In this document: one piece after another, positions 1 through 17,140 of the stretch
Numbering within the stretch: the first letter of the stretch is position 1
Layout of the letters: the number at the start of each line of letters is the position of its first letter
The notes under the pieces: generated by a model
What the model was told of the DNA's origin: nothing
Seen by the model: the letters and a program-made list of their open reading frames with translations, nothing else
Database searches by the model: none
Assembly: GCA_036170245.1 (NCBI GenBank)
Contig: JAVHOV010000026.1
Location: 16,377-33,516, forward strand
Reading direction: 5' to 3'
Length of the DNA: 17,140 nucleotides
Source of the DNA: an archaeon
GTDB taxonomy: Archaea > Iainarchaeota > Iainarchaeia > Iainarchaeales > JAAZKV01
Position numbers and translations under genes: made by a program

Positions 1-2909
1 GTGCGTACATCCACAACCTATCAAACCATTCTTCTAATGGCGCTCTCGTTTCTACAACTTGGTTTTTCACAAGGTCTCGAAATAGATTAATTATTTTTAG
101 GGATGGCTTCGTGCTTAGATGCATTCAGCTCTTATCCACTACAGCGTAGCTACCCAGCATTGCCTTGTCAGACAACTGGCACACCAGAGGCTGCGACGCT
201 ATGTTCCTCTCGTACTCGTAGCATCTTCCCCTCAATTAATCAACAACTCCAACAGATAGTATCCAAACTGGCTCGCACCGTTCTTAACCCAACTAACGTA
301 CGGCTTTAATGAGTAAACCCCTCCACCCTTGGCTGCTCATGCACAGCCAGGATGCCATGAGACGACGGCGAGGTAGCAAACCGCGAGGTCGATGTGAACT
401 CTTACTCGCGACAACTCAATTACTCCCAGGATAGGTTCATTGTAAGACTAGGGCCCTATTAAGAGGCGCACTAGCGTTCGCTAGACCCAAGTTTCCTTCC
501 AGCGTTTTATGCCATTAAAAACACTGTTAAGCCTGCTTATGCTCTTGCACTCTACGTCGAATTTCTGACTCGACTGAGCAGACCTTTGGGCGCTCCTGAT
601 ATCTTTTCAGGAGCGTGCCGCCCCAGCCAAACTACCCACCAAATGCTGTCCCCGAAAAAGGTAAGCAGTATGTTTTCATGAGGATGGTGTTACATTGTTG
701 CATCCGTAGCTCCTGACGAAACTACTTCGATTGCTCCCATCTACACTGTACGCATAAAACCATACCACAACATCAGGCTGTAGTAAACTTCCGTGGGGTC
801 TTCTCTTCCCGTTGGAATTCCGCAGCATATACACAGCGAAGTATGTTCATTCGGCTTAACCTAGGGACAGTAGGAATCTCGTTACTTCATTGGTGCAAGC
901 CGCCAATAAAACGGCAAGGTATTACGCTACCGTGAGAGCCTCAGAGTTAGGCCCGCTCTTCACAAGGGCTTAGATCCGTTGAAACAGATTTTAACCTACT
1001 TGCAGTGAGCAGAAGTCAGTCTCTATACAAACCATTGCTGGCTAGCAGAGACCTGTGTTTTTGTTAAACAGTCGGACTCCTCTTGTTATTGAAACCTGCA
1101 ATCTACATTGCAGGCACCACTTATACCGAAGATACGTGGCTAATATGCCGAGTTCCCTTAGGTTTAATTCCCCGAATACGCCTTAGCTTTTTCTGCCAGG
1201 GGCACTCTTCCTAGTTCTTGGTACGGTTTTCTAGAATCATATACTCTCTTTTTTCATGGACGCCAGGCCTCGCTAAAACATTGCTGCTCGTCCAAGTTTG
1301 TTCACCTTCTCGCCATTACAGCTCTCCGGAGAACTATCCTTGTTGAATCACACGACGGTGTGACAACAGCTAGCCCAATATGTCAAAAGAATATATATCG
1401 TTGCCGAACTTATCTAGAAAGTACGCGACTATGAACGCGTTTCCCTTTCCTGTGCGCCCTATTATGGGCACAGTTAGGACCGACTAACTCTTAGCTTATG
1501 ATAAGCGCTAAGAAACCCTGGCCCTTTCGGCGGAGGTGATTCTCACACCTCTATCGTTACTACTAATGCAAGGATCCATATCGCGAAAAGCTCCATTCGT
1601 ACTTACGTACAAACTTCTAAGCCATCCGCGCACCTACTTACAAAGATTCTTTCTAACTGAAAAAATTTCTACGTATCGGCAGTTGGTTTTAGCCCCGATA
1701 ATCTTCGCTGCCAGTAGCCTAGGTGGGTGAGCTGTTACGCTTTCTTTGAAGGATGGCTGCTTCTAAGCCTACCTCCCCACTGTTTTAGGATACTGACTAG
1801 CTTTACTAACACTTAACCAACATTTAAGGGCCTTAACGTAGAGCTGGGTTCTTACCCTTACGGATGCAAACCTTACGCCTGCACCCCTACTCCCGACTTC
1901 TGCGATGAATATAAATTCGGAGTTTGGGAAAAAAGTCAATCCTTTCGAATCGATACTTCTTAACCAGTATCTCTACATCATATTCCATCTCCATCGAAGC
2001 AACCCTCAGAGGTTTTTCAGCAGGAGCCTGCTATCACCAGATTCGGTTCGCTTATTACGCCTAGTCCCAAATCACCCAAGAAGATAGACTATCACTGGTT
2101 GCGGCCCTCCACCCCCCTCAAAGAGGGCTTCGGCCTGTTAAGGACTAGCTCATCTGGTTTCAGGTCTGGTCGCAGTGACTAACGCTATGAACGCAACACC
2201 TGATCGCTCGAAGCGACTGCGTGTTCTCGGTTTCCCTACGGATGCCCCCTTGAAAAGGGTTATCCTCGCCACTACAACAAATTCCCTTGCTCGTGCTTCA
2301 CGACGTACGACCCGACGCTGAAATAAATTATATACACAACCTCACGATTGTTTCTATAACTTACCTTTCCTTTCACGCCGAGCCTCGCCCGTAACCAGGT
2401 AGTTTCAGGTGCTTTTAAGCTCCTATTAAGGATACTTTTCAACTTTCCCTCGCGGTACTAGTACTCTATCGGTCTAGAGACATATTTAGGGTTGGAAGTC
2501 AATCCTCCCATATTCCCGCGCACTATCCAATGCACGGTACTCTCTCATTAGCAATCAAGTTTTTTTACTTCAAATACGAGACTATCACTCTCTATGGTGC
2601 TGCTTTCCAACAGACTTCTCTTCATAAAAAAACTAGTGCACTAACACCACAATTCCACATCTTTACAGAATAGGATTCAGTGCGCCCTGTTCCAATTTCG
2701 CTCGCCGCTAATTTCGGAATCCCTATTTGGTTTCTTTTCCTTCCGGTACTGAGATGATTCAATTCCCGGAGTTCCTCTTCATTACTGAATTATTCAGGCA
2801 TCTTTGGTTCAAAACCCGCATGCGGCTCGCCAAAGCTTATCGCAGCTTGCCACGCCCTTATTCAGTGCTCTAGCCTAGTCATCCACTACCTGGCGTAACG
2901 TTGCCTACT
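1..2909 (-). rRNA. rrl: 23S rRNA, archaeal type; 3' end truncated by the window edge, 5' end approximate
   Basis: Reverse complement contains the sarcin-ricin loop AGUACGAGAGGA (~206-217), P-loop CUGGGGCGG (~618-626), H69 loop UAACUCUGA, GAAGACCC with archaeal G2058, and the 5' motif GUGGAUG (2880-2886). 5' end was extrapolated from E. coli G24 = position 2886. Confidence 0.97.
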
Positions 2910-3202
2910 AACCAACGAGGGTATGAAGCACACGATTGTGTGGCCCTCGTTGGTAAAAAAGACTAAGTATTCGCTATGATATACATGACAAATCCTATGC
3001 AACAATTAATTCTGAACCAACTTTCGCTGATTCATTCCTAATTGCTTTGCCTTCCATCAGGAAAAAACTCCCGATGGGAACAATATCAATTGTAATCACA
3101 GATGTTACTCTGCAACTGCAAATTTGCTATCATCTTTCGATGATAACCTTAGTAAAACCGAAGTTTTACTAATTCGTCGAAAACTTTTACATTTCCGACA
3201 AG
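2910..3202 (-). other. tRNA-Ala to 23S internal transcribed spacer with several stem-loops
   Basis: Inverted repeats: ACCAACGAGGG/CCCTCGTTGGT (2911-2954), 3052-3080, 3128-3145 (GAAA loop on the transcript), 3149-3172 (C-UUCG-G loop), 3175-3200. Confidence 0.8.
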
Positions 3203-3275
3203 TGGACTCTGAGGGAGTCGAACCCTCGACCTCTCGCGTGCAAGGCGAGCGCTCTACCAACTGAGCTAAAAGCCC
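3203..3275 (-). tRNA. tRNA-Ala (anticodon UGC), intronless, CCA not encoded
   Basis: Cloverleaf GGGCTTT-TA-GCTC AGTTGGTA GAGC-G-CTCGC CT TGC AC GCGAG-AGGTC-GAGGG TTCGACT CCCTC-AGAGTCC-A, with the G3:U70 Ala identity pair and A73 discriminator. Typical position in an archaeal 16S-23S spacer. Confidence 0.98.
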
Positions 3276-3633
3276 TTAGTTGTATTGCTTGTCTCAAACT
3301 AGTTCCTTACCATTTAGGCAAGAACTTACATTTGAGCGCTTGCACCGCTATTTAATGGTCGATACCAATCTAATCCAATTTACAACATTATGTAGACTTT
3401 GTCTACGTGTTGACTTTATTTACTTTTTAAATCCAGAAAATTGCGATTTTCTGAGAAATAAAAATAATTGTTGAATGTGAGCGAGAAAAATACTCGAAAA
3501 CAACTTCTCTGCACTGATAATTTTTTACAAAATTATCGAAAAGAAAAAATCTAAATTTCACAATCATGGTAAAGCAAAGCTTTACTACGCCTCGCAAAAC
3601 TTTCGTTTTGCTCAGTTAAATTATTTTTTTTAT
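3276..3633 (-). other. 16S to tRNA-Ala internal transcribed spacer with several stem-loops
   Basis: Hairpins at 3293-3336, 3383-3412, 3434-3453, 3516-3537 (GUAA loop), 3568-3586, 3594-3611 (GAAA loop). Confidence 0.8.
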
Positions 3634-5119
<1,486 letters not shown>

Positions 5120-5887: not shown

Positions 5888-6148
5888 TTATTTGTAACTC
5901 TTGTACCATTTTTCGTATTCTTTGTGTGTTTTAAAGCAATGCAAAACAAATATAATTTCATTTTCTATGTAATAAACTATTCTTGCTTGTTTTGTTACAT
6001 TTTCAACAAAGTAAGGCAACCCTGATTTTAAGTGTCTATTGGTTTCTTTGGCAGCGATTTTTTCAATATGCTTTCCGAACTGTTCATTTAGAGGATTTGA
6101 AATTTTCTCAAGTTCTTTTTCAGCAGTTTCAAGAATTCTTGTATCCAT
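5888..6148 (-). CDS. RelE/ParE/HigB-superfamily type II toxin (86 aa)
   Basis: RelE-fold pattern: N-terminal 'AEKELEKI' helix, 'ARIVYYI...IFVLHCF' strands, HigB-like C-terminal 'THKEYEKW'. Starts 1 nt after the RHH antitoxin stop. Confidence 0.75.
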   Translation of the reverse strand: MDTRILETAEKELEKISNPLNEQFGKHIEKIAAKETNRHLKSGLPYFVENVTKQARIVYYIENEIIFVLHCFKTHKEYEKWYKSYK

Positions 6149-6149
6149 G

Positions 6150-6386
6150 CTACCACTTGAACTTTTTTTTCATTTCTTCAAAAGATTTTGTTTTAATATT
6201 CCCTGCCTTCACTTCACACATTTCTATTTCAACTGCTTTAGCAACCAACCTTTTTTCTTCTTCTTCAAGCACTCTTTCGTAAGCCAGCAATGCTTGTCTT
6301 ATAGCTTCAGTTTGATTTCCAGCATATTCTTTTTCAATTATTTTCTGAATAATAGCTTCGTAAGGCGCTCCAACGTTAACATTCAT
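6150..6386 (-). CDS. Ribbon-helix-helix (CopG/ParD/RelB-like) antitoxin (78 aa)
   Basis: RHH pattern 'MNVNV..(helix)..YAGNQTEAIRQAL' and an antitoxin-like tail 'GNIKTKSFEEMKKKF'. Tightly coupled to the downstream RelE-like ORF. Confidence 0.78.
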   Translation of the reverse strand: MNVNVGAPYEAIIQKIIEKEYAGNQTEAIRQALLAYERVLEEEEKRLVAKAVEIEMCEVKAGNIKTKSFEEMKKKFKW

Positions 6387-6801
6387 GCTTAATCACTATA
6401 CATCTATTGTACATTAAAGTATATAAATTTTTCCATACTTCATCCTCTTCTTTTGTATTCCAAAGTTTCGCAAGTGATTTTTCACTAGCTAAATAAGTGT
6501 GAATTCCACTAACTTTTTCATTTTCTTTTTCAAAGAGTTTTATAACTACTTTTTTTATTGGATTTTTTTCCAATCTTTTTTGAACATCTTTATCTTCCAA
6601 GTAAAGTTCAACAGCTTCATTAAGATTACTCAAAGCTTCTTTTTCTGTAGCTCCTTGAGAAACTACTCCAAGTTCAGGACAAAGTGCAACAAAGTAAAGT
6701 TCTCCTTTAGTAATAACAGCAGAAAATTCTTTTTTCATCAAATCACTAAAGTACTCTTCTTTTTTGTTAAATAAATAGTTACACTTTTTAGTCAAATCCA
6801 C
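6376..6801 (-). CDS. HicB-like (UPF0150) antitoxin with an extra C-terminal 'SEKSLAKLWNTKEEDEVWKNL' motif; alternative ATG start at 6738
   Basis: HicB signature 'FSAVI..G..YFVALCPELGVVSQGATEKEALSNLNEAVELYLE'. GTG 6801 has RBS AGGAGGAG. ATG 6738 has a GTGA RBS and matches usual HicB N-termini. Confidence 0.8.
   Translation of the reverse strand: MDLTKKCNYLFNKKEEYFSDLMKKEFSAVITKGELYFVALCPELGVVSQGATEKEALSNLNEAVELYLEDKDVQKRLEKNPIKKVVIKLFEKENEKVSGIHTYLASEKSLAKLWNTKEEDEVWKNLYTLMYNRCIVIKHEC
6397..6427 (-). promoter_or_regulatory. Putative TATA box (TTTATATA, 6420-6427) and imperfect inverted-repeat operator (TATACA-N5-TGTACA, 6397-6413) of the RHH/RelE pair
   Basis: Spacing fits a promoter for the ATG at 6386. 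RHH antitoxins typically autorepress through short palindromes. The site is embedded in the 3' end of the HicB-like ORF. Confidence 0.5.
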
Positions 6802-6874
6802 AAAAACTCCTCCTTGAAGAACAAAACTAATTTTGTGCTTTAAAAGAATTCGGAACTAATTTGCCGACGTGATT

Positions 6875-7876
6875 TCACTTCTTCAATGCAACTTTTTTGT
6901 ATTCCCTAACCAAAATACCAATGTGCTTGTCAAGAGAGAATTTCTTTAAAGTATTAACCGCTTCTTTCTTTAATTTTAATACCAGTTTTTCATTTTCAAG
7001 TATTTCAACTAATTTCTCATCAGGCGTTGAAGAGTATGTCTGCACAAACCCCTTGAACATTTCTTTTACAGGAATATTTCTGATTAATACTGGTTTTCCA
7101 AATGAAGCTGCTTCAATTATAACTAACCCAAATGTTTCAGAGAATGAAGGTAGCCAGAATAAATCACACATAGAGTAAGCGCATGCCAAATCTTTCTTAT
7201 ATAATGCTCCGGTAAAAGTAAGATTTGTATTCTTGCTGTTCTCAACAAGTTCGTTAATTTCATCCTTGTTCTTTAGGTAAGGTAAATTAGGGACTTTTCC
7301 AACCCACACAAAATTGTACTGTGGCATTGCTTTGGCTGCCTCAGCAAATTCAAACACCCCTTTTCGGTATTGAATTGAAGCAACGCAAAGAACAGTTTTC
7401 TTTCCATTATTCAACTTATATTTTGATTTAAATGAATTGATTTCTTTACCAGTGACTTTTGGAAATCTATTCTTATCCAAAGGATAAGGGAGTGAAACAA
7501 GTTTCTTTTTTAATAAAGGATTTTTTGATAATTCTCTCATTATATGAGGTGAAGTAACAAACACTTTTTCACACGAAATATAAAATGTGCTTAATCCAAA
7601 ATCAAGCATACTCAAAACCATATCAGGAACTAACCCTTGAACTTCCCCGCTAGTCATGTGAGTTGAAGTAACCACTGGAGTTCGTGGCTGGTGAAGTTTC
7701 ATTCTCGCTAAATTCTCAGGTCTGCAACTGTGAACATGAATTAGATCATATTTATCATCAAGTTTTGAATCAATACTAACCTTAATCCCTCTTTTTGAAA
7801 GCTCTTTTGCAACAATATCAGCATAAACTCTTATTCCTGAATCAGGATTTTCATTAACAATAAAAAGTACTTTCAT
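6875..7876 (-). CDS. GT4-family (GT-B) glycosyltransferase, resembling CpoA/LafB-type glycolipid synthases (333 aa)
   Basis: 'DLIHVHS', 'VVTSTH', 'RKGVFEFAEAAKAMPQYNFVWVG', and the GT4 E-X7-E motif 'PSFSETFGLVIIEAASFGKPV'. GGTGA RBS upstream. Confidence 0.88.
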   Translation of the reverse strand: MKVLFIVNENPDSGIRVYADIVAKELSKRGIKVSIDSKLDDKYDLIHVHSCRPENLARMKLHQPRTPVVTSTHMTSGEVQGLVPDMVLSMLDFGLSTFYISCEKVFVTSPHIMRELSKNPLLKKKLVSLPYPLDKNRFPKVTGKEINSFKSKYKLNNGKKTVLCVASIQYRKGVFEFAEAAKAMPQYNFVWVGKVPNLPYLKNKDEINELVENSKNTNLTFTGALYKKDLACAYSMCDLFWLPSFSETFGLVIIEAASFGKPVLIRNIPVKEMFKGFVQTYSSTPDEKLVEILENEKLVLKLKKEAVNTLKKFSLDKHIGILVREYKKVALKK

Positions 7877-10116: not shown

Positions 10117-11748
10117 TTATTTTTGTTCCTTTAATGCTTTTGCTTCCTTAACTAAACCAAAAAACAAGGGCGAAGGATGCTCAAGTTTTGATTTCAATTC
10201 AGGATGTGATTGAGTTGCAGTAAAGTAAGGGTGAACACTTTTTGGCAGTTCAATATACTCCACAAGCAAACCATTTGGAGATAATCCACTTAAAACTAAT
10301 CCATTCTTTTTTAGAATCTCATGCATTGCGGGATTGACTTCATATCTGTGTCTGTGTCTTTCAGATGACTTAAGTGTCCCATAAAGTTCACTAACAATGC
10401 TTCCTTTCATTAAATTGGCTTCATAAGCACCAAGCCTCATTGTTCCCCCTTTACTAGTTACTTTCTTTTGCTCATCCATTAAAGTAATTATATTGTTTAC
10501 AATATTTGGATTCATTTCAGTTGAATTAGCATCAATTAAATTACATTTATTTCTTGCAAATTCCACTACTGCTGCCTGAAGGCCAAGGCAAATTCCAAGG
10601 AAAGGAATTTTATTTTCTCTAGCATATTTTATTACTTCAATTTTTCCTTCCCAACCCCTGTTTCCAAATCCACCAGGAACAATTATTCCATTCAAATCCT
10701 TCATTGCATCAGAGATACTTTGCTTTTTAGTTTCAATACTTTCAGTATCAATCATTTTAATGCAAACTTCAACATCCAAATTGGCTGAACAATGATGAAG
10801 TGCTTCAACTACACTAGCATAAGAGTCTCCTAAAGCAGTATATTTTCCACAAATCCCAATATTTAGTTTATTTGGAACTGCGCATGATTTAATATCAACC
10901 ATTTTCTTTGCAAGTTTATCCCAATTAGGAATTCCATCTTCAGGAATGTCTAAATGCAATTTATTAGAAATTATTTTTCTTACTCCTTGCTCATCAAGTT
11001 CTCCAGGAATTAAATAAACACTAGGCACATCAATTGCAGTTATTACTGAATCTTCATGCACATTACAAAATAAAGCAATTTTTTTCTTCATTTTTTCTGA
11101 TAAATATTCAGAGCATCGGCAAGCAATTATATCAGGCCAAATACCAATTTCATTTAATGCTTTAACACTCAATTGAGTTGGCTTTGATTTTTGTTCATTT
11201 ACCCCTGTAGGAATTGGAACATATGAAAGGTGTGCAAACATTACATTCTCCCTTCCCTTCTCCCAAGCTAATTGTCTTACTGCTTCAAGATAAAGAGAGT
11301 TTTCCATATCCCCAACAGTTCCTCCTATTTCAATCAATAAAACATCACAGTTCTCTTCCTTTGCAACATTGTAAAATCTATTTTTTATTTCATCAGTAAC
11401 ATGAGGAACTAACTGAACAGTTTTTCCCAAATACTCTCCTTGTCTTTCTTTATCAAGAATTGATTTGTATATTTTTCCCATTGTTAAGTTCCATGTACCT
11501 TTTGCAGTAACATTCATGAATCTTTCATAATGTCCAAAATCCATATCACATTCAGTTCCATCGTCAAGAACAAAAACTTCACCGTGTTCAACAGGATTCA
11601 TTGTACCTGGATCCACATTAAGATAACCATCGCACTTTACTGCAGCGCACTTATATTTTGAGGATAAAAGTTTTCCTATAGAAGCTGTTAAAATTCCTTT
11701 TCCAAGTCCAGAAATTACTCCCCCAGTGACTACAATAAATTTAACCAT
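10117..11748 (-). CDS. pyrG: CTP synthase (543 aa from ATG 11748)
   Basis: 'KFIVVTGGVISGLGKG', 'YLNVDPGTMNP.EHGEVFV', 'KSKPTQ', glutaminase 'GICLG', 'ERHRHRYEVN', 'QSHPE'. G-rich RBS (GGGGTGGGG) before ATG 11748. Confidence 0.98.
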   Translation of the reverse strand: MVKFIVVTGGVISGLGKGILTASIGKLLSSKYKCAAVKCDGYLNVDPGTMNPVEHGEVFVLDDGTECDMDFGHYERFMNVTAKGTWNLTMGKIYKSILDKERQGEYLGKTVQLVPHVTDEIKNRFYNVAKEENCDVLLIEIGGTVGDMENSLYLEAVRQLAWEKGRENVMFAHLSYVPIPTGVNEQKSKPTQLSVKALNEIGIWPDIIACRCSEYLSEKMKKKIALFCNVHEDSVITAIDVPSVYLIPGELDEQGVRKIISNKLHLDIPEDGIPNWDKLAKKMVDIKSCAVPNKLNIGICGKYTALGDSYASVVEALHHCSANLDVEVCIKMIDTESIETKKQSISDAMKDLNGIIVPGGFGNRGWEGKIEVIKYARENKIPFLGICLGLQAAVVEFARNKCNLIDANSTEMNPNIVNNIITLMDEQKKVTSKGGTMRLGAYEANLMKGSIVSELYGTLKSSERHRHRYEVNPAMHEILKKNGLVLSGLSPNGLLVEYIELPKSVHPYFTATQSHPELKSKLEHPSPLFFGLVKEAKALKEQK

Positions 11749-11968
11749 TCTTCCCCACCCCAAAAACAAACAAATTTTTCAAAAACCAAACCTAATTCTA
11801 CTACAATCAATTATTTGAACTAAATTTTGGTCCACCAATTAGTAATAGTAAAACTCCCACCTTCTTTAAAAAAGTGCTGTCCTAATTAATGAGAGTTTGT
11901 CTTTTCTAAAGATTAAAATACTAGATACAATGTATATTTCATTGAGCCCTTTACTATTTAATTTTTTA

Positions 11969-13752
11969 TTATTTCTTTATTATCCCAGTTTTCTGCAATT
12001 TCCATAGTGAGGCATATATTCCTTTCTTCTTTGAGAGCTCCCTGTGGGTTCCTATTTGTTCCACAGTTCCTTTTTTCATTACAATTATCTTATCAGCATT
12101 CATTATAGTACTCAATCTATGTGCAATAATTATAGTTGTTCTACCCTTCATTAATTTTTCAAGCGAAAGCCTGATTTCATATTCAGTTTTTGAATCAAGA
12201 GAACTAGTTGCCTCATCAAGAATGAGTATTTTTTTGTCAGCTAAAACTGCACGAGCAATACTCAATCTTTGTTTTTCTCCGCCAGAAAGCTTTATCCCCC
12301 TCTCTCCAACAACAGTATTTTCTTTTAAGGGCAAACTATTTACAAACTCAAACAATTGAGCCACTTTTAGAGCGTTAAATACTTCCTCTCGCGTAGCACT
12401 CGGATTTGAAAATAAAACATTGTTGTAAATAGTGTCATTGAACAAAACACACTCTTGGGGAACAATACTCAATTCATTTCGCAAAGATTCCTGAGTAACT
12501 GTATTAATATTTTTTCCATCAATTAAAATTTCTCCTTCTTGAGGTTCATATAACCGGTAAAGCAATTTTACAATAGTTGTTTTTCCGCCCCTGAATGACC
12601 TACAAAAGCAACTTTTTCATAAGGTAAAACAGTCAAATTTAAATTTTGAATTATTTTTTTCTTATTAGTATATCCAAAATTTACTCCTCTAAATTCTATT
12701 TTACCTTCTTTAACACTCAACTTTTTAGCATCAATTTTATCTTTAATTTCAGACTCAGTTTTCTTGTATTTCACTACAGCATCAAGGTCAGCTAATCCTT
12801 CATATAATCTCCTTACCCCCCAAAAGAATTCATATAATGGAAGAGTCAGACCAATGTAACTGGTATAAATAAAAACAACTGAACCCATTGTCAAGTCACT
12901 CGCCAAAAACCGAATAATTGTAAAATACATTATAGCAATTGTCCCAAATCCAATTATCATAACGTGCCCTGCTTCAGTAGTATTATAATAATTCCAAAAC
13001 TTCAACCACTTTTGGGAAGTCACAACAGATATTTTATCAAACAGCTCTTTCATTCTATTTTCTTTTCCAAAGTTTTTTACAGTTTCAATATTTGTAAAAG
13101 TATCGCTAATAAATGCTTTTTCATAATCTTCCTGTTCATTCTTTTTTACATTTGCTTCCTGCTGTTTCTTTAGTAGAATTACACTATATATCATGAAAAT
13201 TAAAGCCATTCCTACAACAACAATCGCAGAACTAATATCAAAAAAAGCAATTACAATAAAACCAATTACAAGTTTTATAATCAAGGGCCCGCCGTGAAAA
13301 GTAAAAAAATCAGTTAAACTTTCAACACTCTTCCCACTTCTAATTAACCTTGAAATCAAACTTCCTGTTCTATTTGAAGCATGAAATCTGTGAGAGAGTT
13401 CAATTAAATGATCAAAAATATCTTTTTTGATATCCTTCATCATATCTACTTCAAGCTTGTTTAGAAACAATAATCTTAGGTAACGTAAAATTCCAGCAAC
13501 TAAAACAGTAAGGAAAAATACAATTCCTAAATTGATTGCAATTTGTACAAAAGCATCTTTTGTAATTTTTAGAGCAGCAAAATCAGTTCCTGAATCAATT
13601 ATAAGTTTGTAAATATAATTTTGGCCGAATTCAATTAAGTAACCAAAAGTGATTAAACTCATTACAAAAATGAACATTACCCAATAAGGTTTAGCAATTT
13701 TGAAGTAATACTTCAAATCATCCATTATGTTATTTTCTACTACTTTAGCCAT
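11969..13752 (-). pseudogene. ABC exporter half-transporter (TMD plus NBD; MsbA/Atm1-like) split by a 1-nt deletion in Walker A; real lesion or sequencing error
   Basis: ORF 12568-13752 (TMD) ends 'GHSGAEKQLL*'. The -1 frame continues 'GKTTIVKLLYRLY...VPQE...LSGGEKQR...ILDEATSSLD...IAHRLST'. One added base restores a 594-aa protein. Confidence 0.88.
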
Positions 13753-13811: not shown

Positions 13812-15326
13812 TTACTTTTCAATAATACTTTCGCCAGTCATTTCTTTTGGCTTTGCAATACCTAAAATATCAAGTACAGTAGGAGCAATATCTTCTAACC
13901 CCTTACCTTTCTTTAGCTTTGCTTTCTTGTATTTCTCTTCAGGCGAAACTACAATTAACGGAACTGGATTTAAAGTGTGACTTGTCCTCCACTCAATTGT
14001 CTGATCCTCTGCATTTCCATGATCAGCAAAAACAAGTGAAGTATATCCATTTGGAAGGGCTGCATCAATTATTTTCCCAGTGCATTCATCAACTGCTTCA
14101 ATTGCTTTATGAATTGCACTTGTAATCCCAGTATGACCCACCATATCACCGTTAACTAAATTTATTACAATAAATTTGTACTTATTCTTTTTAATCTCTT
14201 CAACTAATTTCGCAGTTATTTCGTAAACACTCATTTCTGGCTTCAAATCATAAGTTGCGACCTTGGGAGAAGGAACCATTATTCGGTCTTCATTTTTATT
14301 AGGGATTTCAACTTGTCCATTAAAGAAAAAAGTAACATGAGCATATTTTTCAGTTTCACTAATTCTCAATTGACTTAATCCTGCATCAGCTATTACTTTG
14401 CCAAGTAAATTATCAAGTGAAACATCCTTGAATGCAACGTGAGCATTCATTGGGGTATAAAACTGAGTCATTGCAGTGTAATAAACTTTTAGAGGTTTTC
14501 TCTCCCACCCTTCAAACTTTTCTTCAACAATACTTTTAGTTAATTGTCTAGTTCTGTCAGTTCTAAAATTAAAGAAAATAACTGAATCATTTTCTTTTAT
14601 TCCATTGTAATCTGTCTTTTGCATTGGAACAATAAATTCATCAGTAATATTTTTTGCATGACTTTCTTTAATTGCAGTAATTGAATCACTAAATTCAGTT
14701 TTTGCTTCTCCAAGAACTAAACAGTTGTACGCTTCATGAGTTCTTTCCCAGCGATTATCCCTATCCATTGCATAAAATCTTCCACTAATTGTTGCTATTT
14801 CCCCAAAACCTAGTTGCTTTAATTTATCTTCAACAATTTTTACATTCTTCAAAGAATCCGTTACAGGAGCATCTCTCCCATCAGTAATTGCATGAATTTT
14901 TACATTTTTTAATCCCTGTTTTTTACATAAATCCAATATGGCAAGCAAGTGATTCAAGTGAGCATGAACTCCTTCAACTTGAAATAATCCAATTAAATGC
15001 AGAGTCGAATTATGATTTTTAGCATTATTAATTGCACCTAAAAAAGCTTTATTAGCAAAAAAAGTTTTGTCCTCAATACTTGCATCTATTTTTGCTAAAG
15101 ACTGAAAAATTATTCTACCTGACCCAATAGTCATATGTCCTACTTCAGAATTTCCTTGATATCCTTTTGGAAGTCCAACAGCTAAGCCACTTGCATCAAG
15201 TAAAGTATTAGGATATTCTTTCATGAGTTTATTTGTGACAGGAGTTTTTGATTCTAAAATAGAATTTTCTTTAGGATCTTTTCGATAACCCCACCCATCT
15301 CTAATAATTAGAATTACTTTATTCAT
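13812..15326 (-). CDS. gpmI: 2,3-bisphosphoglycerate-independent phosphoglycerate mutase, bacterial GpmI type
   Basis: 'DGWG', 'VGLPKGYQGNSEVGH' (catalytic Ser), 'TDGRD', 'GRFYAMDRDNRWER', 'ETEKYAHVTFFFNG', 'DMVGHTG', 'ADHGNAE'. Confidence 0.97.
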   Translation of the reverse strand: MNKVILIIRDGWGYRKDPKENSILESKTPVTNKLMKEYPNTLLDASGLAVGLPKGYQGNSEVGHMTIGSGRIIFQSLAKIDASIEDKTFFANKAFLGAINNAKNHNSTLHLIGLFQVEGVHAHLNHLLAILDLCKKQGLKNVKIHAITDGRDAPVTDSLKNVKIVEDKLKQLGFGEIATISGRFYAMDRDNRWERTHEAYNCLVLGEAKTEFSDSITAIKESHAKNITDEFIVPMQKTDYNGIKENDSVIFFNFRTDRTRQLTKSIVEEKFEGWERKPLKVYYTAMTQFYTPMNAHVAFKDVSLDNLLGKVIADAGLSQLRISETEKYAHVTFFFNGQVEIPNKNEDRIMVPSPKVATYDLKPEMSVYEITAKLVEEIKKNKYKFIVINLVNGDMVGHTGITSAIHKAIEAVDECTGKIIDAALPNGYTSLVFADHGNAEDQTIEWRTSHTLNPVPLIVVSPEEKYKKAKLKKGKGLEDIAPTVLDILGIAKPKEMTGESIIEK

Positions 15327-15381
15327 CTCAAATCAACTGCCAACCAGTCTATACAAACATCATTAGGTTTAAATTTCTATT

Positions 15382-15801
15382 TTAAACAATTTTTCTAAAC
15401 TTGAAAGTTTCTGATAACTGTCTTGCTCTTAGAGGATTTGATTTTTTTAACATTTTAAATAAAATAACTACATCTGCTTTAGTAGGAACAAGTTTTGATG
15501 CTTTTGCTTGCTTTAGATCCATATGCATCAGTTCATCAAAGTGTCTAATGATTTCAACTTCTCTTTTTGTAAGCTTGGAAGCAGAAACATCCAAAAGAGC
15601 ATTTGTAAGAGTTTTAGTTAAATTATAATTTATTTTTTCTGACTTAAACTTTGTAGTAAATGCAGCCTTTTTAGCCCGAGTTAATGCATGCCTAACCCTG
15701 ACCCCATAAACTTCATTTAATTCACTTTCATTTGCAAGTGAAGAGGCAGTGCGCAAATTGCGAACAAACCTAAGATTCTGCTTATCCACAATTTGACCCA
15801 T
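15382..15801 (-). CDS. Hypothetical Lys/Arg-rich protein (139 aa from ATG 15801)
   Basis: ORF fills the eno to gpmI gap on the same strand. GGTGG RBS precedes ATG 15801. No recognisable motif. Confidence 0.7.
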   Translation of the reverse strand: MGQIVDKQNLRFVRNLRTASSLANESELNEVYGVRVRHALTRAKKAAFTTKFKSEKINYNLTKTLTNALLDVSASKLTKREVEIIRHFDELMHMDLKQAKASKLVPTKADVVILFKMLKKSNPLRARQLSETFKFRKIV

Positions 15802-15841
15802 TTTTACTACCACCAAATATTTTCACATTTTTTTAAATATT

Positions 15842-17140
15842 TCAAGGATTCCTGAAATTATTTCCAACAAACTTAGCTTTTGCGCCAAGCTCTTCCTCTA
15901 TTCGAAGCAACTGATTATACTTAGCTAATCTTTCACTTCTGCAAGGAGCACCAGTTTTTATTTCGCCGGTTCTAAGTCCAACTACAAGATCAGCAATGAA
16001 ACTGTCTTCTGTTTCTCCGCTTCTGTGTGAAACCATAACTCCCCACCCAGCAGACTGAGACATTTTGCAAGCATTGATTGATTCAGTGATTGAACCAATT
16101 TGGTTTACTTTCAATAAAAGTGCATTAACTGCTTTCTTTTTGATTCCTTCTTTTATTCTTTTAACATTTGTAACTAACAAATCGTCTCCAACAATTTGAA
16201 CTTTGTCTCCGATTAATTTAGTTAATTTTGCGTAAGAATCCCAGTCGTCTTGATCAAACGGATCTTCAATTGAAGCAATATCATACTTATTTGCAAGTTC
16301 AGCATAATATTTTATCATTTCATCTCCGCTTTTCCAAGTAGCTTCTTTGCTCTTGAAAGTTAAATTATATGCTTTTTTATCAGCATCAAAAAACTCTGAA
16401 GCAGCTACATCCATTCCAATTCGAACTTTTCCTTGGTAACCTGCTTTTTCAATTGCAATAGTCAGTAAATCAAGTGCTTCATGTGCATCCTTAACATTAG
16501 GAGCAAATCCACCTTCATCTCCCGCATTAATTGCATTTTGTCCGTACTTCTCTTTTATTATTCCTCTTAAAGTATGGAAAACTTCCGTACCATATCTTAA
16601 ACTTTCAGAAAAATTTGGTGCATCAACGGATAGTAACATAAATTCCTGCATTGCAAGTTCGTTGCCTGCATGCTTCCCTCCATTAATTACATTAAAACTT
16701 GGCACAGGCAAAAGTACATCTTTTACTCCTGCAAGGTCAGCAATGTGCTGATAAAGTGCAACGCCCTTACTTTCAGCTCCGGCTTTGCATACAGCCATTG
16801 AAACTGCCAAAATTGCGTTAGCCCCAAACTTTGATTTATTTTCAGTTCCGTCAGCGAAAATCATTTTTTCATCAATCTTAACTTGCTCTGTTGGATCCAT
16901 TCCTAAAACTAAAGGAGCAATATATTTGTTTACATTCTCAACTGCTTTTAGCACTCCTTTTCCCATATATCTTTTCTTATCTCCATCTCTAAGTTCTAAA
17001 GCTTCATAAATTCCAGTACTTGCTCCACTTGGAACAGATGCTCTAAATAATCCTTTTTCAGTTATTACATCACATTCAACAGTTGGATTTCCTCTTGAAT
17101 CCAATATTTCTCTTGCTTTTACATTTAGTATCTTTGACAT
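15842..17140 (-). CDS. eno: Enolase (phosphopyruvate hydratase), eukaryote-like sequence type
   Basis: 'DSRGNPTVE', 'VPSGASTG', 'GDEGGFAP', 'DVAASEF', 'VGDDL', '[10 protein letters not shown]', 'SHRSGETED', '[16 protein letters not shown]'. Confidence 0.99.

Follow-up and report, generated by a model that had tools for sequence, protein, structure and literature searches.

An enolase gene at the end of an archaeal contig

We analyzed a stretch of 17,140 nucleotides (the window), which forms the final 17,140 bases of contig C26 in an assembly of 866,866 bp (43 contigs, 86% complete, 0% contamination). The rRNA operon in the window shows the host to be an archaeon; it is a DPANN member of the Iainarchaeota from groundwater. 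At the contig end lies eno, an uninterrupted open reading frame (ORF) of 432 codons from ATG to TGA that encodes an enolase of eukaryote-like sequence (Table 1). Its ATG is the final codon of the contig; the promoter and upstream region lie beyond the contig end. We use "E-type" as a working name for enolases that resemble eukaryotic enolases more than they do other prokaryotic ones, that carry an FK motif with an insertion and that branch with eukaryotes.

Table 1. Features of the window with their coordinates
Feature	Position	Strand	Description
eno	15842..17140	-	432-aa enolase (phosphopyruvate hydratase), eukaryote-like "E-type"; ATG is the contig's last three bases
FK motif and short insertion	16331..16357	-	residues 262-270 FKSKEATWK, 5 extra residues 265-269; coordinates by hand from the translation
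orf144	15382..15816	-	lineage-specific ORF within the eno-gpmI gap
gpmI	13812..15326	-	2,3-bisphosphoglycerate-independent phosphoglycerate mutase, bacterial/eukaryotic GpmI type; TIGR01307, 617 bits
ABC exporter (membrane domain and ATPase)	11969..13752	-	frameshifted inside Walker A; member of the conserved eno-gpmI-ABC-pyrG neighbourhood
pyrG (CTP synthase)	10117..11769	-	conserved neighbour
Archaeal rRNA operon	1..5119	-	23S 1-2910 (cut by window edge), tRNA-Ala 3202-3275, 16S 3634-5119

Pfam placed Enolase_N (PF03952) on residues 4–133 of the translation (profile 1–131 of 131, E 1.5e-58) and the TIM-barrel domain Enolase_C (PF00113) on residues 143–431 (profile 3–294 of 296, E 1e-141). 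The NCBIfam equivalog TIGR01060 "eno" was matched with 594.1 bits at a cut-off of 300. In a sequence search of the PDB, chains of alpha-enolase (626 bits), gamma-enolase (614) and beta-enolase (607) ranked at the top. The highest chain under the eukaryote-named rows was 2pa6 with 481 bits, which we take to be the Methanocaldococcus jannaschii enzyme (the search table does not name the organism), and the remaining rows scored 475 bits or less. Aligned to human alpha-enolase (ENO1; PDB 2psn, 3b97, 9x4f), the window enolase is colinear from residue 3 to residue 432 (430 residues), interrupted by just three gaps of 2 residues, and retains the motifs [45 protein letters not shown] and KTGAP. Motifs carrying the metal-binding and acid/base residues, roles that we assume from yeast and human enolase, are identical to human alpha-enolase and across the multi-enolase alignment. 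BLASTP identity was 65–66% to three vertebrate gamma-enolases and 65% to the enolase domains of Acacia and Alexandrium, i.e., about 65% to vertebrate, plant and dinoflagellate enzymes. A first-pass annotation of this DNA had described a eukaryote-like enolase on an archaeal chromosome. All 12 peptide strings that it named were found in the translation (at residues 29, 39, 57, 97, 116, 132, 162, 291, 365, 381, 394 and 428), and motifs, domains and the PDB ranking bear the description out far beyond chance.

The whole assembly holds one enolase. The gene, eno, has intact catalytic motifs, is co-directional with a GpmI-type phosphoglycerate mutase gene and most likely serves the interconversion of 2-phosphoglycerate and phosphoenolpyruvate in lower glycolysis or gluconeogenesis. 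For annotation, and judged from its sequence also in function, the gene is an ordinary enolase.

A gene at the extreme end of contig C26, with its upstream region absent, might be eukaryotic contamination or a chimeric contig end, and in other assemblies tiny contigs do bear contaminant enolases of eukaryote-like sequence (L052, L068). Against this stand the Logan contigs from four groundwater runs, which belong to one study that is possibly the source of the assembly. In each run a single contig spans positions 14329–17140 with 0 differences and joins eno, orf144 and 1 kb of gpmI; in three of the four runs it extends 79–294 nt past the window end. Its depth was 7.4–10.8, compared with 6.0–10.2 in the flanks. 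One of the two outcomes named beforehand as overturning the annotation, a break in the assembly that separates eno from the archaeal genes, was not seen in any of the four runs, at equal depth. Further into gpmI, at 14317–14358, the contigs of all four runs break and give no independent link across that point. Moreover, the same gene order occurs in metagenome-assembled genomes (MAGs) of other projects, also on near-megabase contigs with archaeal rRNA: in three other genomes of the same genus, the E-type enolase lies on contigs of 788–985 kb that also bear 23S rRNA. The GC content at third codon positions (GC3) of eno is 0.21, inside the range of 0.17–0.27 found for nine neighbouring ORFs, and the gene has no intron. 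Because of the run contigs, the near-megabase contigs of the genus and the matching GC3, contamination or a chimeric end is very unlikely and for practical purposes ruled out.

The contaminant-like cases can be described as follows. Two intronless eukaryote-type enolases were found on a 1652-bp contig of Halorubrum sp. F4 (L052), which groups with the Acacia enolase (100*), and on a 1662-bp contig of Microbacterium arborescens (L068), which groups with fungal and animal enolases. Both are probably cDNA-like eukaryotic contaminants in isolate assemblies. A further eukaryote-like enolase with 64% identity lies at 6001–7369 on a 603-kb contig of a Crocinitomicaceae MAG (L055). Its match is in two pieces, and the gap could be an intron, which would point to a misbinned eukaryotic contig, or a frameshift.

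E-type enolases among prokaryotes

A peptide-pattern scan over one genome per species gave 525 relatives of the window enolase. The best 80 of these 525 are mostly labelled Iainarchaeum, Woesearchaeota, Pacearchaeota, Nanoarchaeota, Aenigmatarchaeota and Micrarchaeota. They also hold two genomes labelled as candidate phyla radiation (CPR), two Asgard MAGs at 61% identity (Hodarchaeota, Promethearchaeota) and two contigs of ~1.6 kb from isolate assemblies that resemble eukaryotic contaminants. In a protein search, matches at 70–95% identity were metagenome or MAG proteins, and the named ones were archaeal (Iainarchaeum, Diapherotrites, Aenigmarchaeota, Woesearchaeota). The closest enolases among the matches listed were labelled Candidatus Iainarchaeum, ainarchaeum or Diapherotrites, and 7 of the 120 protein matches listed were long eukaryote-type tandem or fusion proteins with 59–63% identity.

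E-type relatives at 64–95% identity were found in Iainarchaeota, Nanobdellota, Aenigmatarchaeota, Micrarchaeota and one CPR bacterium, and they are a minority in every prokaryotic phylum sampled. Ten of 151 Iainarchaeota genomes carry the E-type, the next enolase down having 60% identity. For Nanobdellota the count is 11 of 301 genomes with at least 64% identity (the 301 include two marked as unpublished, which were counted only), followed below by a continuous gradient from 63% to 52%. Nine of 201 sampled Asgard genomes reached 60–64% identity to the window enolase and none more; no E-type was present among the 30 best-matching enolases fetched from these 201 genomes.

The CPR case, a contig with the label Paceibacterota (L038 = G155:C1), has an E-type eno with gpmI directly downstream, ~73 kb from a 16S rRNA gene on the same 957-kb contig. 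This 16S scored 1378 bits with the bacterial model versus 992 bits with the archaeal one. Because a CPR contig holds an E-type eno together with a bacterial-type 16S, the E-type lineage has crossed the boundary between archaea and bacteria. Little described so far, this enolase lineage passes between DPANN archaea and CPR bacteria; in the databases its members from other phyla are annotated only as "phosphopyruvate hydratase". These enolases from Nanobdellota (Woesearchaeota, Pacearchaeota), Aenigmatarchaeota, Micrarchaeota and Paceibacterota are 64–75% identical to that of the window, share its clade and its insertion and often have gpmI adjacent. They differ in belonging to other phyla, whereas the subclade of the window is confined to part of one Iainarchaeota family.

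Mean identity of the window enolase was 68% (max 73%) to other DPANN E-type enolases, 65% (max 67%) to eukaryotic enolases and 62% to a group of Hodarchaeota-like Asgard enolases. It fell to 52% for ordinary enolases of the same family and to 52–55% for other archaea and bacteria outside the E-type clade. DPANN E-type and eukaryotic enolases share on average 66% identity (max 74%), compared with 69% within DPANN E-type and 70% within eukaryotes; Hodarchaeota-like Asgard and eukaryotic enolases share 61%.

In eukaryotic enolases, the stretch from the ASEF to the IEDP motif contains FK with 5–8 extra residues after it, a segment that presumably lies in the mobile loop L3 of yeast enolase. This insertion was present in 15/15 eukaryotes, the window, 8/8 Iainarchaeota E-type, 3/3 CPR-labelled and 25/27 other DPANN E-type sequences. 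It was absent from 19/19 aligned Asgard enolases (including 8/8 Hodarchaeota-like ones), from 6/6 ordinary enolases of the family, from 4/4 bacteria and from the other Iainarchaeota and other archaea aligned. Only two E-type rows lack it, L066 and L080, and in the trees these branch at or close to the E-type base. A long, 8-residue form "DFKxPxxDxS" is found in a subset of Woesearchaeota and Nanoarchaeota and in most eukaryotes, including ENO1; the window has the short form with five residues, as do Pacearchaeota, CPR and other Nanobdellota.

Within the family of the window, two enolase types occur. Among 38 genomes, 18 carry the E-type (72–100% identity to the window enolase) and 19 an ordinary enolase (46–54%), and one is without a match. 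The identity classes are discrete, 72–100% versus at most 56%, with nothing between. Both types are present within the genus of the window. The ordinary type is found in 11/12 genomes of genus g2, in 2/2 of g3 and in the single genome of g63, and the E-type is concentrated in part of genus g1. The 23S rRNA of E-type carriers is 87–96% identical to that of the window, that of the sole same-genus carrier of the ordinary type with a 23S 84%, and that of other genera 80–81%. The ordinary enolases (L114–L119) belong to the same enzyme family and host lineage and also occur as one copy per genome. They differ from the window enolase in lacking the FK insertion and in carrying an insertion of their own, of 3–4 residues, after an ASSF motif. 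One same-genus MAG (G107) has an E-type enolase (83%, on a 3.4-kb contig, pair G107:C124 / G107:C158) and a partial enolase (56%, on a 2.7-kb contig), which points to a genome with both types or to mixed binning.

Synteny follows the same division. The order eno-gpmI-(ABC)-pyrG is repeated among E-type genomes of the family. Of 79 fetched loci, 26 contain gpmI, and all 26 are E-type; in 13 of them, including CPR loci and several from Nanobdellota, gpmI lies directly downstream of eno. Around the ordinary enolases of the window's genus, a stretch of ~8 kb contains no gpmI and no pyrG.

Relation to eukaryotic enolases

Trees were calculated with FastTree from 116 rows, with a quick IQ-TREE run from 71 rows (posterior mean site frequency model, LG+C20+F+G4) and, for these 71 rows again, in a careful IQ-TREE search. 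Support pairs given for the careful tree are ultrafast bootstrap (UFBoot) and SH-like approximate likelihood ratio test (SH-aLRT) values. Eukaryotes were thinly sampled with 13–15 rows from groups other than Discoba, Metamonada and Amoebozoa, because a profile search for named eukaryotes gave mostly dinoflagellate fusion proteins and vertebrate gamma-enolases. As tree rows we also tried representatives clustered at 50% identity. These were unnamed and often fused or truncated; three that fell near the clade were divergent fungal and insect paralogues, and these three were left out of the later trees.

In the careful tree, E-type prokaryotes and eukaryotes form one clade (98/90), which recurs in the other trees with weaker support. 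The window enolase and five Iainarchaeota relatives make up a group (100/100) beside a CPR sequence (97/89) and Pacearchaeota. The eukaryotes (13 rows) are a single clade (95/87) nested behind a ladder of DPANN sequences with node supports of 83–94 UFBoot. The Hodarchaeota-like Asgard enolases (100/100; e.g. L065/L084 from the Hodarchaeota MAG WORE3) stand outside the clade of E-type and eukaryotes. They resemble the window enolase in their 60–64% identity and in the C-terminal block SHRSGETED...[18 protein letters not shown], and differ in a length of 423–424 aa and in lacking the FK insertion. In a further quick tree, with 20 Nanobdellota enolases along the identity gradient added, E-type and eukaryotes again formed one clade (82). 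In this enlarged tree the Hodarchaeota-like Asgard rows fell among Nanobdellota rows of 58–61% identity (L081–L089, L160–L173; SH-aLRT 82–91, none starred), which hints that the Asgard enolase type was also exchanged with DPANN.

Hence the window enolase does not branch within ordinary archaeal or bacterial enolases, the placement that would have contradicted the first-pass annotation. On the basis of sequence, tree and the common loop insertion, the E-type lineage, patchy among DPANN archaea and at least one CPR bacterium, is in all probability the closest prokaryotic relative of eukaryotic enolases; by these three measures it is nearer to them than any sampled Asgard enolase. Of the two readings offered earlier, a prokaryotic clade sister to the eukaryotic enolases is essentially right in view of the tree and the insertion, and a direct transfer from a eukaryote to an archaeon, with its hint of contact with protists, is not supported. 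The nearest relatives of the window enolase are archaeal MAG proteins at 70–95% identity, with eukaryotes at 67% or less. It groups with DPANN and CPR sequences and not inside eukaryotes, and, unlike ENO1, its gene is prokaryotic, intronless and placed beside gpmI. Other E-type prokaryotes have this gene order too, and the insertion has the short form, not the long eukaryotic one. As the first-pass annotation described, the gene has a host-like composition, no intron and a position near gpmI; foreign composition or remnants of a eukaryotic gene structure were not found. A recent acquisition of the window eno from a eukaryote is not supported.

Taken as a whole, the data are best explained by a working-looking sole enolase of the E-type lineage that arrived laterally and is not a recent eukaryotic import, a reading to which we assign a probability of roughly 75%. 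The E-type gene would have entered the genus from a different DPANN or CPR organism, probably along with the neighbouring gpmI or beside it, and would have taken the place of the ordinary enolase of the family. Lateral acquisition with displacement most likely describes the history of the genus, because of the two-class distribution, the indels and the synteny, and not because of a decisive tree test.

Several results weigh against this explanation. Approximately unbiased (AU) tests rejected none of four alternative topologies at 0.05: all enolases of the family as one clade (p 0.18), the window lineage with eukaryotes as one clade (a cost of 19.1 log-likelihood units, p 0.09, disfavoured but not rejected), eukaryotes with Hodarchaeota-like Asgard (p 0.375) and prokaryotic E-type as one clade excluding eukaryotes (p 0.146). 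The tests are therefore compatible with either direction of the ancient transfer. The position of the family's ordinary enolases differed between the careful 71-row tree and the enlarged tree. On a pyrG tree the enolase type needs at least four changes, pyrG being a poor species marker, and the distribution of gpmI among the 38 family genomes does not strictly co-vary with the E-type enolase.

Without any transfer into the genus, the E-type would be ancestral in the family and the ordinary enolases its fast-evolving descendants. The AU result for a single family clade (log-likelihood difference 17.8) allows such vertical inheritance, and the careful tree shows the ordinary clade with a long stem (0.69) and as sister to the E-type clade (71/94). 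It shifted elsewhere, however, once Nanobdellota rows were added. The gap between the identity classes, the different insertion in place of the FK insertion, the different synteny and the spread of the ordinary type over g2, g3 and g63, with the E-type concentrated in part of g1, argue further against descent from one ancestral gene, which we regard as improbable. An older event, which shifts the first-pass idea of a eukaryotic donor into the past, would be a transfer from a stem or early eukaryote to one DPANN lineage, which seeded the whole E-type clade and was followed by sideways spread among DPANN and CPR. The small share of carriers in Iainarchaeota and Nanobdellota with none among the best Asgard matches, the crossing into CPR bacteria, an E-type to eukaryote similarity comparable to that of eukaryotes among themselves, and the unrejected monophyly of prokaryotic E-type would all fit such a donor. 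Against it, the best tree nests the eukaryotes as one clade in the DPANN ladder, the basal rows L066 and L080 are without the insertion, Nanobdellota enolases form a continuous gradient that flanks the clade in the enlarged tree, and prokaryotes were never nested inside eukaryotes, as far as 13–15 eukaryote rows can tell. We consider a eukaryotic source of the clade unlikely.

A further step is tentative, and we hold it for rather doubtful: eukaryotic enolase may share exclusive common ancestry with a DPANN (Nanobdellota-type) lineage, or may have been acquired from one before the last eukaryotic common ancestor, instead of deriving from a Hodarchaeota-like Asgard enolase. On this view, the insertion with FK would have originated within DPANN as a shared derived character, absent in basal members, then gained as the short form and extended to the long form of some Woesearchaeota and of eukaryotes. 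Eukaryotic enolase would in this case trace to a second archaeal partner or donor of the episymbiont type.

In textbooks, enolase is the enzyme of archaeal type in eukaryotic glycolysis, and it is the one glycolytic enzyme for which an origin from the archaeal host has long been accepted. Should the present relationship persist once eukaryotes are fully sampled, any account of how eukaryotes came by their lower glycolysis will have to include a DPANN-related donor or an early transfer from eukaryotes to DPANN. Both would be concrete examples of a gene passing between ultra-small symbiotic prokaryotes and the stem lineage of eukaryotes. The latest large study assigns eukaryotic enolase to the Asgard host: ENO is nested in Archaea as sister to Asgard with 39% UFBoot2 (Santana-Molina et al. 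2025, PMC11976288), and the available main text does not mention DPANN for ENO. Our tree agrees in placing eukaryotic ENO inside Archaea and differs in the sister group; the Hodarchaeota-like Asgard enolases are the kind of sister group published. Available parts of two other studies describe enolase as near domain monophyly among cultured prokaryotes (PMC12525153), and low congruence with likely transfer of enolase in CPR bacteria (PMC7304191). Searches of open-access full text and of bioRxiv gave no paper that describes a eukaryote-related enolase from DPANN.

Neighbouring genes and minor observations

The gpmI gene lies 516 bp downstream of eno in the same orientation, and its product catalyses the step preceding enolase in lower glycolysis. 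The phosphoglycerate mutase of the window is of the GpmI type and not of the archaeal ApgM type, and is patchy, with 16 of the 38 family genomes carrying it. A strict joint transfer of eno and gpmI was considered and set aside: three ordinary-type genomes (G043, G048, G082) have a gpmI, and in two E-type genomes (G031, G016) none was found.

The eno-gpmI gap of 516 bp compares with 6–157 bp in the loci of 12 relatives. The ORF within it, orf144, had no Pfam or NCBIfam match and no homologue among the fetched loci of relatives. We also considered a mobile insert and rejected it, as the ORF has no family match and the genome holds no second copy (one 30-base match at chance level only).

In the relatives L002 and L003, the ABC exporter is one gene with membrane and ATPase domains. 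The window has a break near 12565–12600, and since the contigs of the four runs agree with it, the break looks real, i.e., the exporter looks like a real pseudogene or shifted gene. As a species marker, pyrG was dropped as not decisive, with pyrG identities overlapping between the two enolase classes. It lies close to eno in the window and is adjacent to eno in E. coli K-12 (L131), which may reflect an old linkage or coincidence.

Among the plankton transcriptome and metagenome proteins P0271–P0381, many fuse enolase to PGK, TPI, PGI, PGAM or GAPDH or are tandem repeats. The named organisms with such fusions are mostly dinoflagellates.

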